Source of the DNA: an uncultured archaeon
GTDB taxonomy: Archaea; Aenigmatarchaeota; Aenigmatarchaeia; Aenigmatarchaeales; Aenigmatarchaeaceae
DNA length: 34,089 nucleotides
Direction of reading: 5' to 3'
Assembly: GCA_964654075.1 (NCBI GenBank)
Contig: CAZZIA010000001.1
Span: 1 to 34,089 of the forward strand
Position numbers and translations under genes: made by a program. Each line of letters opens with the position of its first letter. The stretch's first letter is position 1. Positions 2,988 through 27,246 of the stretch are shown here, one piece after another. Under the pieces are notes generated by a model. That model did no database searches and was not told the DNA's origin. It saw only the letters and a program-made list of their open reading frames with translations.

Positions 2988-3755
2988 ATGCTTCAAAAAC
3001 TGTTAAATCTTTTTTTGCTTAAAGATCATCTTATCTATGGAATAGTGCTTGGCTTTTTTGCTGTAACAATCGGTATGCTTGTTGCAACTTTTATATCTCC
3101 TAGCTCACCATCGATTGTCGGCTTATTTTTTGCCACCCTAGCAATAATGCCGGTTACATTTTCTGCATTAAGAAGGCAAGAAGTTGTAAAAATTAAAGAA
3201 GTTTTGCCTAAATATAAGAAATTGGCTGAACTGTATTTTTATTTATTTTTTGGCATGGCCTTGGCATTTGCCTTCTGGTTCACTGTTTTGCCAGAGCCGA
3301 TATCTAGCTGGTTGTTTAAAGAGCAAATACAGAGGTTTGCTATTGGCTATTTTTCTCAGACTTATGCCACATTGCTTAGTATTTTAATAAATAATCTTGG
3401 TTTGGTTTTTCTGTTTTTTATTTTATCAATTGTATATGGCATGGGCTCTCTTTTTTTGCTGAGCTGGAATGCATCAATATTAGGCCTTATGTGGGGCAAT
3501 GCAATGAAAGCTTTGATTTTCTTTTTTGAACCATCGGTCTTCTTTAGAAACACGATTTTTATCCTGCCTTATATGCTTCCTGAGGTTGCAGCATATTTCA
3601 TAGCAGCAATTGCTGGCGGGATAATTTATGTAAACATAATAAAAAAGCAAAAGCTAAAAAATGCAATCAAGGATTCCTTAGTTCTGTTAAATATAGCAAT
3701 AGCCCTAATCATTTTAGCTGCTGGAATAGAAACTGTAATGCTGGCTATATTTTAA
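2988..3755 (+). CDS. SpoIIM/DUF95-like polytopic membrane protein
   Basis: 255 aa with multiple TM segments. 'LSWNASILG' and 'LPYMLPEVAAYFIAAIAGG' match the conserved hG-x-x-E-hP-A core of the stage II sporulation protein M family. Confidence 0.6.
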   Translation: MLQKLLNLFLLKDHLIYGIVLGFFAVTIGMLVATFISPSSPSIVGLFFATLAIMPVTFSALRRQEVVKIKEVLPKYKKLAELYFYLFFGMALAFAFWFTVLPEPISSWLFKEQIQRFAIGYFSQTYATLLSILINNLGLVFLFFILSIVYGMGSLFLLSWNASILGLMWGNAMKALIFFFEPSVFFRNTIFILPYMLPEVAAYFIAAIAGGIIYVNIIKKQKLKNAIKDSLVLLNIAIALIILAAGIETVMLAIF

Positions 3756-6526: not shown

Positions 6527-6538
6527 AAAGATCACAAA

Positions 6539-6653
6539 TGGTGGGCCAGGCAAGATTTGAACTTGCGATATCTACCTTTCTTAGTGGTTTGTAAGGGTTG
6601 CACGTTTGCCATTAATGACAAACTTAGCGTCATAACCACTAGACCACTGGCCC
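6539..6653 (-). tRNA. tRNA-Val(UAC), 2 introns (27 nt at 29/30, coordinates 6598-6624; 12 nt at 37/38, coordinates 6578-6589), CCA encoded
   Basis: GGGCCAG TG GTCT-AGTGGTTA-TGAC G CTA|..|CC CTTACA|..|A GGTAG ATATC GCAAG TTCAAAT CTTGC CTGGCCC A CCA. The second intron has a perfect CTTA/TAAG central helix. The first has GTTTG/CAAAC plus a relaxed ACGC/GTGC helix. The spliced length is 76 nt. Confidence 0.8.
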
Positions 6654-7319: not shown

Positions 7320-7547
7320 ATGTTAAAAGAAAAATATCTATTTTTATCATTTGACATTCCTAGAGAAAAGGCTAGTTTCAGAGTCAAAATTTGGAGAAGG
7401 TTAAAGGAGATTGAAGCAAGGCAAAAACTTGGTTCTTATTGGATGCTTTCTTACTCAAAACAAAATCTAAACAATTTAAAAAAGATTGTTAAACAGATTA
7501 AAAAATCCAAAGGACGGGCTGAAATAATTGTTGGAAGATTGATTTAG
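7320..7547 (+). CDS. small ChrB-N-terminal/Cas2-like alpha/beta protein (hypothetical)
   Basis: 75 aa. YLFLSFDIPREKASFRVKIWRRLKEIEARQKLGSYWMLSY....GRAEIIVG follows the pattern of ChrB N-terminal-type domains (L-x-Y-x-hP-x-x-x-S-x-x-RV-x-hWR-x-L-x-x-x-GA-x-x-L-x-x-S-VW-x-LP ... G-G-x-A). Its stop overlaps the GTG start of the next gene (taGTG). Confidence 0.5.
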   Translation: MLKEKYLFLSFDIPREKASFRVKIWRRLKEIEARQKLGSYWMLSYSKQNLNNLKKIVKQIKKSKGRAEIIVGRLI

Positions 7548-8365
7548 TGAATAGTGCAAAATTTGATTTATCTAAAATTAAATTTAGTTGGACTGATAAA
7601 AGAAAGAAAATAAAATTGCCGGAAATGTTAACAGAAGAATTGGCAGAAGATATTGGAATTCATATTGGAGATGGGAGTATGTATCTAACAGGTCCAAACT
7701 TAAAAAGCTATGAAATGAGATATTCGGGTGATTCCACAGAAGATAAAGAACATTATATTAATCGAATAATACCATTAAAAGAAAGATTATTTAATAAACA
7801 AATAAATGGAAAGATATTAAATTTTAGAGGAAATGAATATGGATTTGTCATTTGCTCAAAAGCAATTTTTTATTTTTATACAAAAATTATACATATCCCT
7901 TCAGGCACCAAAACAAAAATAGCAGAAGTACCTAAAATGATAATGAAATCTAACAAATCTATTCAAGCTGCATTTATAAGAGGATTGTCTGATACAGACT
8001 TTTCATTAACGTTTAAAAGAAAAAGCACTAAACATAATTTAAATTATTATCCTATGATTACAGCAAATTTTGCAAGTAGAAAATTAGTTGATAATCTTCA
8101 AAAAATTTTAAAGGGTTTAAGTTTTAATGTTGTAATTCTAGATGGAATTAATAAGAGGTATAACAAACATTATCCAACTCATATAATTAACATAAATGGA
8201 AAAAGGAACTTAGAACTTTGGATGAAAATTATAGGTTTTAATAATCCAAAACACTTAACAAAATATTTGGTGTGGAAAAAATTTGGTTTTTGCCCACCAA
8301 GATTATCTCTGAAACAAAGAAAACAAATACTAACAGGAAATTTGGATCCATATAATTTTTATTAA
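7547..8365 (+). CDS. free-standing double-motif LAGLIDADG homing endonuclease-like protein (copy 1)
   Basis: 272 aa. Motif 1 is LAEDIGIHIGDGSMY and motif 2 is AFIRGLSDTDFSL, both retaining the acidic residue. It is a paralog of the 24.0-24.8 kb ORF. The stop lies 1 nt from the 3' end of the convergent tRNA-Ile. Confidence 0.8.
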   Translation: MNSAKFDLSKIKFSWTDKRKKIKLPEMLTEELAEDIGIHIGDGSMYLTGPNLKSYEMRYSGDSTEDKEHYINRIIPLKERLFNKQINGKILNFRGNEYGFVICSKAIFYFYTKIIHIPSGTKTKIAEVPKMIMKSNKSIQAAFIRGLSDTDFSLTFKRKSTKHNLNYYPMITANFASRKLVDNLQKILKGLSFNVVILDGINKRYNKHYPTHIININGKRNLELWMKIIGFNNPKHLTKYLVWKKFGFCPPRLSLKQRKQILTGNLDPYNFY

Positions 8366-8366
8366 A

Positions 8367-8516
8367 TGGTGGGCGAGGTGAGATTTGAACTCACGACATC
8401 TGGGAGTTTTAACTCTCACCAGTTTTTACGCCAGGTTGCCTTATAAGACTGGCGCTCCTTCAGGAACGTATTAACCTGGCTGAGCATCGGGAACACAAAC
8501 ATGTGTTTACCCGCCC
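8367..8516 (-). tRNA. tRNA-Ile(UAU), 4 introns (22 nt at 9/10, coordinates 8486-8507; 14 nt in the D-loop, 8459-8472; 17 nt at 38/39, 8424-8440; 19 nt at 45/46, 8398-8416), CCA encoded
   Basis: Exons: GGGCGGGTA | GCTCAGCCAGGTT | GGAGCGCCAGTCTTATAA | ACTGGTG | GTCGTGAGTTCAAATCTCACCTCGCCCACCA. These give a 78-nt class I cloverleaf with loop CTTATAA and variable loop TGGTC. Each intron has a 4-bp central helix flanked by 3-nt bulges: CGGG/CCCG, CAGG/CCTG, TTAT/GTAA and CTGG/CCAG. Confidence 0.75.
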
Positions 8517-23596: not shown

Positions 23597-23614
23597 TATA
23601 GACACGTGTCTATA
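23597..23614. promoter_or_regulatory. perfect 18-bp palindrome (operator-like) between the TATA-like box and the start of the wHTH gene
   Basis: TATAGACAC|GTGTCTATA lies immediately downstream of CTTTAAATAATA and 3 nt upstream of ATG 23618. Confidence 0.45.
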
Positions 23615-23617
23615 ATT

Positions 23618-23857
23618 ATGAAACAAGTTAATGAGAAAAAGGTACAAAAGATTTTGAAAGTATTAGCAAGGTCTAAACAAAAATTATGGATTAGAGAAAT
23701 CGCCAGAAGAACAAAATTAAGTCCAGGGATTGTAAGTCATTACATTAATACAGCTTTAAGAGATAAAGTAAAAATATCACATGGTAAATTTGCCTTTCAA
23801 GATATAACTTTTGTAGAGTTGAAAGAGGGACGAAAAAATGAGATATTTAAAATTTAA
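23618..23857 (+). CDS. small winged-helix transcriptional regulator
   Basis: The ORF is about 79 aa from ATG 23618; the GTG at 23606 used by the track lies inside the palindrome. KILKVLARSKQKLWIREIARRTKLSPGIVSHYINTAL is a typical HTH (ArsR/TrmB-like). Confidence 0.6.
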   Translation: MKQVNEKKVQKILKVLARSKQKLWIREIARRTKLSPGIVSHYINTALRDKVKISHGKFAFQDITFVELKEGRKNEIFKI

Positions 23858-23883
23858 ATACATATTAAAGAAAATAAACTCAT

Positions 23884-24018
23884 GCCCGAGTAGCTCAGAG
23901 GAAGAGCGACTGGCTGTTAGCAAAATGGCTGGAACCAGTAGGTCACTTATGGATAAGTTAAGTGCTTTCCATAGATCAAAGGTTCGAAATGTGGACGGAG
24001 ATCCTGTCTCGGGCGCCA
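23884..24018 (+). tRNA. tRNA-Asn(GUU), 3 introns (14 nt at 37/38, coordinates 23920-23933; 33 nt at 50/51, 23947-23979; 13 nt at 59/60, 23989-24001), CCA encoded
   Basis: GCCCGAG TA GCTC-AGAGGAA-GAGC G ACTGG CTGTTA|..|A CCAGT AGGTC AC|..|AGG TTCGAA|..|T CCTGT CTCGGGC G CCA. The G73 discriminator is present. The BHB central helices GGTC/GATC and TTCG/CGGA restore a perfect ACAGG/CCTGT T-stem and a TTCGAAT loop. The spliced length is 75 nt. Confidence 0.85.
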
Positions 24019-24806
24019 TTTTAAATCTTTCTGCTATTAAATTTAGCAGAAATGATTTAAGAAGAAAAATTGTTCTACCAAAATTTATTTCAGAAGATCT
24101 TGCAGAAAACGTAGGTGTTCTTATTGGAGATGGCTCAATTTATATTTCCAATCACGATTACAATATTGTATATAGTGGAAATTTAGTGGAAGATAGATAC
24201 TATTTTGAAAACTATTTAGTTCCATTAAATAAGAGACTTTTCAATATTTTATTTAAAAACATTATTTACCATAATGAGTTTAGGCTTTATATACGATCTA
24301 AAGCCCTTTTAACTTTTTATAGTAAGGCTATAGGACTTCCATTAGGCTTAAAAAGTAATATCACTATCCCAAGAAAAATTTTGAGGTCTAAAAGTTTAAT
24401 TACTCATTGTATAAGAGGGATAATGGATACTGATTTTTCCTTATCATTTAAATCTAGGAAAAAATATCACTCATACCCTGTTATTTCTGCTTATTTTAAA
24501 AGTAAAGCACTTGTAAAACAATTAGAAAATTTATTAAAAAAATTAAACTTTAAAGTTGTATTAAATTACGATTATGAAAGAATTGACAAAAGAATTAAAA
24601 ATGGTAAATTTATATCTCAAGCAATTTATTTGAACGGAAAACAAAACTTAGAATTATGGTGGAATTTAATAGAAAGTCGTAATCCGAGACTTGTTACAAG
24701 ATACTTAATTTGGAAAAAATTTGGCTTTTGCCCTCCCTATACAAATATGCAACAAAGAATAAATATACTAAAAGGTAAGATCAACCCTAAAGAATTTTAT
24801 AAATAA
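23991..24806 (+). CDS. free-standing double-motif LAGLIDADG homing endonuclease-like protein (copy 2); start uncertain and located inside the tRNA-Asn gene
   Basis: Similarity to copy 1 begins at ..LNLSAIKFS (24022 onward). Motifs are LAENVGVLIGDGSIY and HCIRGIMDTDFSL, with a shared C-terminus NP..T.YL.WKKFGFCPP. No ATG/GTG/TTG occurs in frame between the tRNA end and motif 1. The in-frame candidates are GTG 23991, ATG 23949 and ATG 23925, all within tRNA introns. The track ORF extends back to 23838. Confidence 0.75.
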   Translation: MDGDPVSGAILNLSAIKFSRNDLRRKIVLPKFISEDLAENVGVLIGDGSIYISNHDYNIVYSGNLVEDRYYFENYLVPLNKRLFNILFKNIIYHNEFRLYIRSKALLTFYSKAIGLPLGLKSNITIPRKILRSKSLITHCIRGIMDTDFSLSFKSRKKYHSYPVISAYFKSKALVKQLENLLKKLNFKVVLNYDYERIDKRIKNGKFISQAIYLNGKQNLELWWNLIESRNPRLVTRYLIWKKFGFCPPYTNMQQRINILKGKINPKEFYK

Positions 24807-24809
24807 GCA

Positions 24810-24835
24810 TTGAGTCCGACTCCGGGCGCCATTTT
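24810..24835 (+). repeat. orphan tRNA 3'-end fragment / direct repeat of the tRNA-Asn 3' end
   Basis: TTGAGT CCGAC TCCGGGC G CCA TTTT reads as a degenerate T-loop, T-stem 3' strand, acceptor 3' strand, G73 and CCA. CGGGCGCCATTTT (24823-24835) is identical to 24010-24022. Confidence 0.6.
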
Positions 24836-24844
24836 GTGATTTAA

Positions 24845-25351
24845 ATGAATCTTGTCAAAAAAATAAATACTGAGTTGCAGAATGAAATAGCTAAATATAA
24901 CTCTGAAATTGCTAAAGCTATGAACGCTGTTATAGAGTTTCCAGTAGATTTTTTATTCGAAATCAAGCCAAATATTCCATTAGATAAAATAGCTGAATAT
25001 GCAAATGCAAATCCTGAAGCTGCTGCTAATAGCTATCTTACATATGCATTTAGCGCATTGCAAAATGAAAATTATAAATATGCAAGAAAATTTTTTAAAT
25101 TGGCTAAGTGCTGTTTAGAAAGGACAAAATATCTGCACTTAAAAGAACTACAGGTAATTGTGAGGCATCCAAAAAAGTCTGCCGAATTGCTAAAAGGCAG
25201 TATAGAAATTTATACTAAGAAGAATAAAGAATTAGTAAATGAATATAAAATGCAAAAAGCGGAAGCTGACAAAATAGTTGAAGAAAGTATTATAAGGTTG
25301 TTAGACAGAAAGGAAAATGAAAAGGAGAAATGGCAGACATATATTATGTAA
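24845..25351 (+). CDS. hypothetical helical protein
   Basis: 168-aa ORF with a GTGAT SD 4 nt upstream. No family motif was recognised. Confidence 0.55.
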   Translation: MNLVKKINTELQNEIAKYNSEIAKAMNAVIEFPVDFLFEIKPNIPLDKIAEYANANPEAAANSYLTYAFSALQNENYKYARKFFKLAKCCLERTKYLHLKELQVIVRHPKKSAELLKGSIEIYTKKNKELVNEYKMQKAEADKIVEESIIRLLDRKENEKEKWQTYIM

Positions 25352-25995: not shown

Positions 25996-26118
25996 GGGGT
26001 AGTAGCTCAGACTGGGAGAGCGCACGAGGATGCTATCCTGCGAAGCTGAAGACCGTGAATGGGATGCTTGGCATCTCATCGGGAAATGTCGTGAGTTCAA
26101 ATCTCACCTACCCCACCA
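25996..26118 (+). tRNA. tRNA-Phe(GAA), 2 introns (18 nt at 30/31, coordinates 26027-26044; 28 nt at 43/44, coordinates 26058-26085), CCA encoded
   Basis: GGGGTAG TA GCTC-AGACTGGGA-GAGC G CACG|..|G CTGAAGA CCGTG |..| ATGTC GTGAG TTCAAAT CTCAC CTACCCC A CCA. Intron 1 has a textbook BHB: CGCA/TGCG central helix, CG|A and AA|G bulges, and a GGAT/ATCC inner helix. Intron 2 has a 9-bp inner helix plus ACCG/CGGG. The spliced length is 77 nt. Confidence 0.85.
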
Positions 26119-26706: not shown

Positions 26707-27246
26707 ATGACTGAAGGTAAACTTGTAGAAGATAAAGTAATTATCTGGGATATAGAAGGTGGGAAAGAAATTTATGAAACTGCATATTATGGCAAACTAA
26801 AGGAAGATAGGCTAGAGCTGGCATTGATAGAGGCATGCTTGCTTTTAGAAAGGCAGAAAATTGACATATTGGACGAAGATGGCAAAAAAATGAAATTTGA
26901 TAAATTTTTTCATTATTGCTGCAAAATTGATAAAAGATTTGTATCTAGATATGTTGTGTATAAAGATTTAAGGGAAAGAGGATTACCAGTAAGGACTGGA
27001 TTTAAATTTGGATGTGATTTTAGAGTTTATGAAAGAGGTGTAAAGCCGATAAAGAGGGGGCCAAAAGCACCTGGCGAGCACACAAAATGGATTGTATTTG
27101 CTGTTTCAGAAGATTATACGTGCTCATTTCATGAACTTTCAAGGGCTGTAAGACTTGCCCACAATATCAGAGCAAACATGCTATGGGCGATTGTTGATGC
27201 GGATTTAGATGTTACATATTATACAGTAACATTTACCAGACCTTAG
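26707..27246 (+). CDS. endA: tRNA-splicing endonuclease EndA (179 aa, alpha4-sized), atypical active site
   Basis: YVVYKDLRERGLPVRTGFKFGCDFRVYERG...GEHTKWIV...AVRLAHNIRANMLWAIVDADLDVTYYTVTF aligns along its length with the M. jannaschii EndA sequence as I recall it. Tyr and His of the triad are present. The Lys position reads Ala. Confidence 0.9.
   Translation: MTEGKLVEDKVIIWDIEGGKEIYETAYYGKLKEDRLELALIEACLLLERQKIDILDEDGKKMKFDKFFHYCCKIDKRFVSRYVVYKDLRERGLPVRTGFKFGCDFRVYERGVKPIKRGPKAPGEHTKWIVFAVSEDYTCSFHELSRAVRLAHNIRANMLWAIVDADLDVTYYTVTFTRP

Follow-up and report, generated by a model that had tools for sequence, protein, structure and literature searches.

How does a gene come to lie flush against the 3' end of a transfer RNA (tRNA) gene, and from where is it translated if it has no start codon of its own? 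This question is raised by a 34,089-nucleotide (nt) stretch of DNA from an uncultured archaeon of the Aenigmatarchaeota (contig CAZZIA010000001.1; the whole stretch is referred to here as the window), in which a tRNA-Asn(GUU) gene runs directly into an open reading frame (ORF) with two LAGLIDADG motifs. The explanation that we favour, and consider reasonably probable, is that a homing-endonuclease cassette has duplicated or replaced the 3' end of tRNA-Asn and is expressed through the tRNA gene. A broader and more tentative proposal, whose chances we put a little below even, is that in several DPANN lineages a tRNA gene that is functional as such also provides the 5' coding sequence of an endonuclease, with the unprocessed and unspliced pre-tRNA serving as leader and N-terminal codons of the messenger RNA (mRNA), and with inserts that supply a ribosome-binding site and start codon (as in locus L001 described below), are kept free of stop codons and have lengths that are overall a multiple of three.

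The endonuclease reading frame and the 3' end of tRNA-Asn

The first codon of the endonuclease domain contains A76 of the tRNA, and its frame is open from 23823 to 24806, through the entire tRNA-Asn gene (Table 1). The only in-frame ATG, GTG or TTG codons from 23838 to 24186 are ATG 23838, ATG 23925, ATG 23949 and GTG 23991, and none occurs between the last of these and motif 1. From 24018 onwards the ORF is 43% identical to a second member of the same family in the window (copy 1, 7547–8365), the similarity beginning at the tRNA end. Both LAGLIDADG motifs are present (motif 1, VLIGDGS; motif 2, GIMDTDFS), and their acidic residues (G-D-G and D-T-D) are invariant or nearly so in alignments of 28 and 36 sequences. 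There are at least 54 homologues, with lengths of 250–335 amino acids, most of them carrying PF14528 (LAGLIDADG_3), which matches 32 of the 36 aligned homologues; the window protein itself has no Pfam match at E ≤ 0.01. When the family profile was compared with the PDB, intein endonuclease domains, PI-PfuI and I-DmoI were matched with E-values of 4e-7 to 5e-15. In the AlphaFold model, the predicted local distance difference test (pLDDT) score is 93–98 for residues 61–322 and 42–69 for residues 1–60; the latter are encoded by the putative promoter region and the tRNA gene, and the folded part starts at residue 61, that is, at the tRNA end. Foldseek matched the model to the endonuclease domain of the TliVMA intein (E = 3e-11), to I-DmoI (E = 1e-7; template-modelling score of 0.75, target-normalised) and to I-Tsp061I, in agreement with a pseudo-dimeric, two-domain alpha-beta-beta-alpha-beta-beta-alpha fold. 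By its sequence and predicted fold, the protein is a two-motif, monomeric, I-DmoI-like LAGLIDADG homing endonuclease, for which site-specific DNA cleavage and its target are predicted.

The tRNA-Asn gene is interrupted by three inserts; when these are taken out, a perfect 75-nt tRNA-Asn(GUU) cloverleaf remains, with G73 at 24015 and an encoded CCA at 24016–18, of which A76 (24018) is the end of the gene. Rfam scores the tRNA at 23884–24015 with 33.5 bits. ARAGORN reported no tRNA in the window at default settings, and its intron search also missed the multi-insert genes; the multi-insert tRNAs were recognised through Rfam and manual splicing. A metagenome-assembled genome from NCBI (locus L001) carries an endonuclease 57% identical to that of the window, with different flanking genes and likewise behind a tRNA-Asn, and the window and L001 tRNA-Asn genes are related by compensatory changes (A6–T67 to G6–C67 and A49–T65 to G49–C65), which indicates that both are under selection as tRNAs. 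The multi-insert tRNA-Asn of the window is predicted with confidence to be a functional gene. Minimum-free-energy folds (simple local folding) show hairpins in inserts 1 and 2 and no clear 3-4-3 bulge-helix-bulge. The TATA-like tract upstream, TATTTAAAATTTAAATA, is likely the tRNA-Asn promoter, and it also codes in frame (..LKFKY..) within the long ORF.

The sequence CGGGCGCCATTTT occurs in exact copies at the end of tRNA-Asn and again behind the ORF and nowhere else in the window on either strand; none of 100 dinucleotide-preserving shuffles contained even one copy. The second copy lies within an orphan fragment that begins 3 nt past the stop codon of the ORF and continues into the TTTT-GTGAT-TTAA-ATG of the next gene. 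When the orphan was aligned with tRNA-Asn 3' parts, the best match was that of L001 (18 of 20 bases, p < 1/300 by shuffling), which it resembles more closely than the window's own tRNA-Asn. The fragment is best described as a displaced and decayed tRNA-Asn 3' end. The gene behind it (24845–25351, 168 amino acids) has no homologue among 5.8 billion proteins, and its GTGAT followed by 3–4 nt and ATG is the usual ribosome-binding layout of the window. A first-pass annotation of this DNA had described the direct repeat, the T-loop-to-CCA fragment around its second copy with GTGAT-N4-ATG behind it, the ORF flush with an intact tRNA-Asn and lacking its own start, the frame open back through the whole tRNA and the onset of similarity to copy 1 at the tRNA end, all of which were borne out.

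Two intron-based readings were rejected. If the orphan were the true 3' exon of a giant intron, the resulting hybrid would be mismatched at A6/C67, its T stem would be broken and its T loop would have only 6 nt, and the tRNA-Asn is complete upstream of the ORF, so that the ORF does not lie between two exons needed for the mature RNA. A group I intron was rejected in the absence of any Rfam match to such an intron in the window. A hypothetical endonuclease-free site would consist of tRNA-Asn followed by the trailer TTTTGTGATTTAAATG.

In L001, a four-insert tRNA-Asn is followed directly after its CCA by the ORF, again without ATG, GTG or TTG before motif 1, and directly after the stop codon stands the orphan cattGGGCGCCATTTT, which is homologous to that of the window and 12 nt shorter; the shared repeat part is only about 8 nt (GGGCGCCA) and hardly occurs elsewhere in about 470 kb of fetched loci. 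Because the orphan is shared with a locus whose endonuclease is 57% identical and whose flanks are different, the layout is either old or moves as a unit, and the picture of a lone recent insertion gives way to a wider tRNA-associated family. The endonuclease frame of L001 is closed by a TGA inside the tRNA; 9 nt later, GTGAT-AAT-ATG, which has the consensus ribosome-binding layout, stands in frame in an extra 19-nt insert in the anticodon stem. In locus L096 (45% identity, with the window copy as best match), the CCA-TTTT of tRNA-Asn is flush with an ORF without its own start, in-frame ATGs lie within an anticodon-arm insert, the ORF is in a different frame with respect to the tRNA and no orphan is present. 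In two further loci of the same clade (L004 and L014), the gene lies 90–110 nt behind tRNA-Asn and has its own Met start.

The cassette is carried by all five other assemblies of the species. One of them, L095, spans it completely with 1 base difference in 1,190 nt; this difference (L095 position 212, window 23951) turns ATG 23949 into ATA and also weakens the hairpin of insert 2. Contigs from other samples begin inside the ORF (L084–L086) or end just past the junction with the 24845 gene (L087), and these contig ends could reflect strain heterogeneity or low coverage.

Table 1. Coordinates of the tRNA-Asn endonuclease unit and of related features in the window.
Feature	Coordinates	Strand	Remarks
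SD-like GAGGG and in-frame ATG 23838	23825–23840	+	GAGGG 23825–29, spacing 8 nt (SD, Shine–Dalgarno)
TATA-like A/T-rich tract	23844–23860	+	TATTTAAAATTTAAATA; 24–40 nt upstream of tRNA G1
tRNA-Asn(GUU) gene, encoded CCA	23884–24018	+	exons 23884–23919, 23934–23946, 23980–23988, 24002–24018
Insert 1	23920–23933	+	14 nt, position 37/38; holds in-frame ATG 23925
Insert 2	23947–23979	+	33 nt, in T-stem 5' strand; in-frame ATG 23949, AGGTCA 3 nt before
Insert 3	23989–24001	+	13 nt, T loop 59/60; holds in-frame GTG 23991
13-nt repeat, copy 1	24010–24022	+	acceptor 68–72, G73, CCA, TTTT
LAGLIDADG endonuclease domain	24018–24806	+	262 codons and stop 24804–06; no gap after tRNA-Asn
Orphan tRNA-Asn 3' fragment	24810–24831	+	TTGAGT (T loop)-CCGAC (T stem 3')-TCCGGGC (acceptor 3')-G73-CCA
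13-nt repeat, copy 2	24823–24835	+	within the orphan fragment and its TTTT trailer
Ribosome-binding site and start of next gene, GTGAT-TTAA-ATG	24836–24847	+	GTGAT 24836–40, ATG 24845
tRNA-Phe(GAA), two inserts	25996–26118	+	no endonuclease gene behind; M54 directly follows
Copy 1, same endonuclease family	7547–8365	+	own GTG start overlapping stop of 75-codon ORF 7320–7547 (no Pfam match)
Multi-insert tRNA-Ile(UAU), encoded CCA	8367–8515	-	hand-spliced sequence called tRNA-Ile(tat)

tRNA genes as lodging and as possible reading frame

The tRNA-Asn unit belongs to a family that is widespread in DPANN archaea and whose members lodge immediately beside tRNA 3' ends. When GTDB representative genomes were scanned, 80 DPANN loci were recovered, in which 81 copies could be analysed. 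The 3' end of an opposite-strand tRNA lies 0–7 nt from the stop codon of the ORF, or is overlapped by it, in 35 of the 81 copies; a same-strand tRNA stands just downstream in nine and at most 130 nt upstream in six. As a background rate, these flanks hold 22 tRNAs in 302 kb (0.073 tRNA per kb), and more than ten different tRNA species adjoin family members. Copy 1 of the window has the convergent form, its stop codon TAA standing 1 nt from the CCA end of an opposite-strand tRNA-Ile(UAU) that was detected neither by ARAGORN nor by Rfam (E ≤ 5). A search for flanking repeats around all 83 copies (exact words of at least 10 nt, both orientations) gave nothing systematic in the convergent loci.

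Several further observations concern the surroundings of these copies. The 3' ends of tRNA-Asp (6542–6653, minus strand) and of the tRNA-Ile beside copy 1 are 84% identical over 38 nt (6536–6573 versus 8364–8401), including 3 nt of trailer and with compensatory T-stem differences; tRNA-Asp is followed by the TTT-GTGAT-CTTT-ATG of a weakly GNAT-like ORF (E = 0.002), a layout of tRNA, SD sequence and ATG that the first-pass annotation had already pointed out. Five copies flush with tRNA-Thr or tRNA-Ala (L025, L026, L036, L047 and L080) have their stop codon right after the conserved FCPP motif (..CPPxY-stop) and are about 25 residues shorter than other members, and L034, L037, L056 and L061 are among the loci in which the ORF runs 20–60 nt into the antisense strand of the tRNA before its stop. 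At L060, two family members stand in tandem, each preceded by an identical 54-nt sequence (2460–2513 and 3349–3402), which looks like a local duplication of the whole cassette. Insertions in large-subunit (LSU) ribosomal RNA (rRNA) house family members at L030 (793–5526) and L038 (1–376).

Among the loci at which the tRNA precedes the ORF on the same strand, a separate, monophyletic clade of about 22 proteins was recognised, whose N-termini correspond to a tRNA-Phe(GAA) gene translated in frame. DNA sequence was read for ten loci, including eight members of this clade. In each of the eight, the length of the tRNA-Phe gene (93, 111, 117 or 120 nt) is a multiple of three despite at least six insert configurations, and the endonuclease frame contains no stop codon, whereas each other frame contains 1–5. 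Among 49 insert-containing tRNAs beside other family members, taken as controls, a given frame was stop-free with P = 0.136, and 32 had no open frame at all. The frame is thus shown to be preserved through the tRNA-Phe genes well above the control rate. Two proteins, P0068 and P0069, are annotated with later starts, yet their frame is open through the tRNA; in P0065, the 5' part of the tRNA is read in another frame (GDVAQSGRAT = GTAGCTCAG..), the ORF is still open and the common frame is regained before the T arm.

The acceptor and T stems of the tRNA-Phe loci differ by fully compensatory changes, which indicates working tRNA genes. Of the eight DNA loci, seven have an ATG placed exactly 7 nt ahead of G1 and 15–19 nt past a TATA-like box, and one subclade has instead a conserved ATG about 58 nt upstream with a TATA-like box of its own; the expected leader pattern of the clade is M(K/R)xGxSSxRESNRLK. 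The position at which other family members have Met corresponds to N73 plus 2 nt in this clade (ACN or ATN) and to GCC in the Asn clade, and is never a start codon. In L089 and L094, the stop codon is immediately followed by an orphan T-loop-to-A73 fragment (p < 1/300), and L088 has a weak, shorter one; the orphans of L088 and L089 resemble each other's tRNA-Phe acceptor type and not their own.

The neighbourhood of the tRNA-Phe loci comprises topoisomerase VI subunit A, GT2, tRNA-Phe with the ORF, M54, EndA (tRNA-splicing endonuclease) and S17e, and it is shared by the window. The syntenic tRNA-Phe site, occupied in about 22 relatives, is empty in the window, and a related endonuclease gene stands 2 kb upstream at tRNA-Asn. 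The window is an AT-rich (34% G+C) archaeal sequence that encodes topoisomerase VI subunit A, a tRNA-splicing endonuclease and an archaemetzincin, and the nearest relatives of its genes are found in DPANN archaea (Aenigmatarchaeota, Woesearchaeota and Nanoarchaeota). Its EndA gene is at 26707–27246; EndA lies within 0–2 genes of the tRNA and endonuclease unit in the window and in most tRNA-Phe loci (L003, L088 and L091–L093).

Origin, expression and rival explanations

In the explanation that we favour, insertion would have taken place in the 3' part of the tRNA gene, and the cassette would either have brought a replacement 3' end with it or have generated one by duplication. The tRNA would have stayed intact, and the displaced native end would have been left downstream, joined to the original TTTT trailer and the ribosome-binding site of the next gene, where it could provide right-hand homology for homing into any tRNA-Asn gene. 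The endonuclease gene, lacking a start and presumably also a promoter of its own, would be co-transcribed with the tRNA and translated from ATG 23838 upstream or from ATG 23925, ATG 23949 or GTG 23991 in the inserts, reading through the tRNA. Only transcripts that escape tRNA end-processing and splicing would act as mRNA, which would keep expression low, and the first 20–60 residues, encoded by the tRNA, would be a disordered leader ahead of an enzyme that folds normally. Peptides expected under this explanation include MAGTSR.., MDKLSAFHR and NVDGDPVSGAILNLSAIK, and SKVRNVDGDPVSGAILNLSAIK is an example of a tRNA-encoded stretch. The GTGAT-AAT-ATG of L001, the ATGs within the L096 insert and the roughly 22 open-frame tRNA-Phe loci give good reason to place the translation start inside or upstream of the tRNA gene. 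In addition, the conserved N-terminal motif LNLSxIxFSxxDxxRKIxLP is retained in the window and L001, which implies that translation must begin at or before the tRNA end.

Several points weigh against this explanation, beginning with the start candidates of the window, none of which is conserved. GTG 23991 is missing in L001, ATG 23949 is GTG in L001 and ATA in L095, and ATG 23925 has no SD sequence. ATG 23838, which stands 46 nt upstream of tRNA-Asn and overlaps the end of a helix-turn-helix gene (23606–23857), probably precedes the tRNA-Asn promoter, and L001, in which the frame is closed upstream, has no equivalent of it. ATG 23838, with its SD-like GAGGG, also contradicts the first-pass claim that the only possible starts lie inside tRNA introns; the three in-tRNA candidates named there are all in frame. 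The run of four T residues after the CCA could be a transcription terminator. In the tRNA-Phe clade, transcription is predicted from the TATA-to-ATG spacing of 15–19 nt to start at the ATG at -7 or just past it, and this ATG could therefore be an initiator element and not a start codon. No flanking repeat is present in five of the 11 tandem loci (L003 and L090–L093), and in L096 there is no space for one. The synteny of the tRNA-Phe loci across genomes agrees at least as well with long vertical retention as with active homing, and the endonuclease-free tRNA-Phe of the window (G1–A73, 120 nt, a multiple of three) is also stop-free in the equivalent frame, which may be chance or the trace of a lost endonuclease gene. 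Finally, the empty tRNA-Asn site that had been proposed as a check in related genomes was not found: only occupied copies came up when the exact protein was looked up and when metagenomes were scanned with the junction between orphan and gene, the 24845 gene having no homologues and all population contigs being occupied.

Given the lack of any in-tRNA start common to the window, L095 and L001, the same architecture could be expressed from a non-canonical start past the tRNA, with the released 3' trailer as mRNA and the open frame through the tRNA as incidental. Near-cognate codons stand in frame at the right place in both loci (ATT 24018 and ATT 24036, encoding I61 and I67, in the window; ATC in L001 at the Ile equivalent to the window's ATT, just past the tRNA), and weak initiation would suit a toxic nuclease. 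We nevertheless regard such a start as fairly unlikely, since no near-cognate start is conserved at the ACN/ATN Met position of the tRNA-Phe clade, the frame through the tRNA is kept in about 22 of 22 members of that clade across different insert sets against the P = 0.136 of the controls, and a canonical GTGAT-N3-ATG stands in frame inside the L001 tRNA. Leaderless translation in archaea, moreover, strongly prefers a 5'-terminal AUG, which also counts against it. That the ORF is a decaying and untranslated pseudogene, which lost its start on fusion to the tRNA, would agree with the missing start codon and with the lack of a Pfam match, but is very improbable in view of 262 stop-free codons in a genome of 34% G+C, the retention of all family-invariant residues, the very confident fold prediction and the occurrence of intact start-less ORFs also in L001, L096 and about 22 tRNA-Phe loci at 40–65% identity.

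Turning from expression to origin, the protein may be a domesticated and immobile LAGLIDADG protein with a host role (maturase-like or tRNA-related), the orphan being the fossil of an ancient insertion. LAGLIDADG maturases exist, and the bI3 maturase is among the fold matches; the tRNA-Phe copies occupy the same syntenic slot in at least eight divergent genomes and have diverged about as far (45–63% identity) as the GT2 gene beside them, ORFs are intact everywhere, a tRNA-splicing endonuclease gene is nearby and the missing empty tRNA-Asn site points the same way. Domestication is nonetheless distinctly unlikely in our view. Throughout the family, both motifs keep their catalytic acidic residues unchanged, and the occurrence in LSU rRNA insertions and at more than ten tRNA species is as expected of mobile site-specific elements; the window, moreover, has a related copy at tRNA-Asn beside its empty tRNA-Phe site. 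The identities of endonuclease and GT2 are uncorrelated (r = 0.006) and the L088 and L089 orphans are of the other lineage's acceptor type, which together suggest exchange between lineages, although the comparison of endonuclease with GT2 identities was in itself uninformative. Direct repeats at tRNA 3' ends are the classical mark of integrase-mediated insertion into tRNA genes, and the exact 13-mer on both sides of the cassette invites its reading as an att site or as the target-site duplication of a transposase element. An integrase or transposon origin was, however, rejected, and this reading of the repeat is extremely improbable: the LAGLIDADG gene is the sole ORF of at least 40 amino acids between the repeats, with no integrase or recombinase gene there, and a repeat search gave the direct 13-mer only and no terminal inverted repeats. 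The repeat length also varies, from about 8 nt in L001 to about 20 nt in the window, L089 and L094, where the repeat is imperfect and extends as far as the T loop, which argues for partial gene duplication and not for the duplication of a staggered cut.

Relation to known systems and implications

The closest parallel is found in fungal mitochondria, where mobile endonuclease ORFs (mORFs) insert at the 3' end of atp6, atp9, cox2 or nad3 and bring a foreign C-terminus for the gene with them (Allomyces macrogynus atp6; Glomus spp.; PMC3630166). As in mORFs, a free-standing endonuclease ORF stands at the 3' end of a conserved host gene, which is complete through a second 3' copy upstream of the ORF, with the displaced copy downstream. 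mORFs are in phase and co-transcribed with the host gene, and the frame of the window ORF is likewise continuous with tRNA-Asn. The host here, however, is an archaeal tRNA in DPANN and not a mitochondrial protein gene, and being in phase means translating a structural RNA and its inserts. Whereas the inserted copy of mORFs is foreign, the resemblances of the window, L088 and L089 orphans are hints only as to which copy is native and which is foreign.

Endonuclease genes are known from group I introns in DPANN rRNA, rRNA introns being the classical archaeal home of LAGLIDADG genes, and Nawrocki et al. assigned every one of 39 archaeal group I introns to rRNA genes and not a single one to tRNA genes (PMC6125680). 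The window protein shares its fold and family with I-DmoI, I-PorI and I-Tsp061I, which also have conserved stable-RNA genes as targets, and the family members of L030 and L038 lie in LSU rRNA insertions; unlike these enzymes' genes, the window ORF stands outside an intron, and the host gene is whole without splicing. In phages, free-standing homing endonucleases (such as T4 seg and mob) show intron-less homing, in which the endonuclease-free allele is cleaved and repaired from the occupied allele. Their genes also lie between or beside conserved genes; they have their own promoters and starts and are of the GIY-YIG or HNH type, whereas the window gene is a start-less LAGLIDADG gene, and we know of no phage free-standing homing endonuclease that shares a frame with a tRNA gene. 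Integrase-driven islands and proviruses likewise regenerate the tRNA 3' end and leave a partial direct repeat at the far end; unlike them, the window insert has no integrase, measures 0.8 kb, holds a single endonuclease ORF and belongs to a series with variable repeat length. A search of open-access full texts gave no endonuclease genes flush with archaeal tRNAs and no ORFs read through tRNA genes; in these texts, archaeal LAGLIDADG genes are described in rRNA introns and inteins only, and the duplicated-3'-end architecture for mitochondrial protein genes only. A free-standing homing endonuclease with a duplicated host 3' end is already known in kind, and the more radical part of the proposal is the tRNA gene as a coding sequence.

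If the proposal is true, tRNA genes of DPANN archaea would be a major and previously undescribed home of LAGLIDADG genes, which lie flush with the 3' end and not in introns or inteins, and genome mining would gain a family of endonucleases with likely targets (tRNA 3' ends) that the genomic context reveals. A structural RNA gene and its introns could then be under protein-coding constraint, and annotation pipelines would hide coding tRNAs by masking them or by choosing later starts, as in the truncated P0068 and P0069. Maturation of the tRNA and translation of the endonuclease would compete for one transcript, which would make these loci a natural system of RNA processing versus translation. 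Part of the spread of non-canonical tRNA introns would be tied to selfish endonucleases, for which they would act as expression modules, and the inserts would possibly also protect the tRNA gene from re-cleavage. Mobile endonucleases would thus be connected, in a testable way, with the large number and odd placement of tRNA introns in small archaeal genomes.

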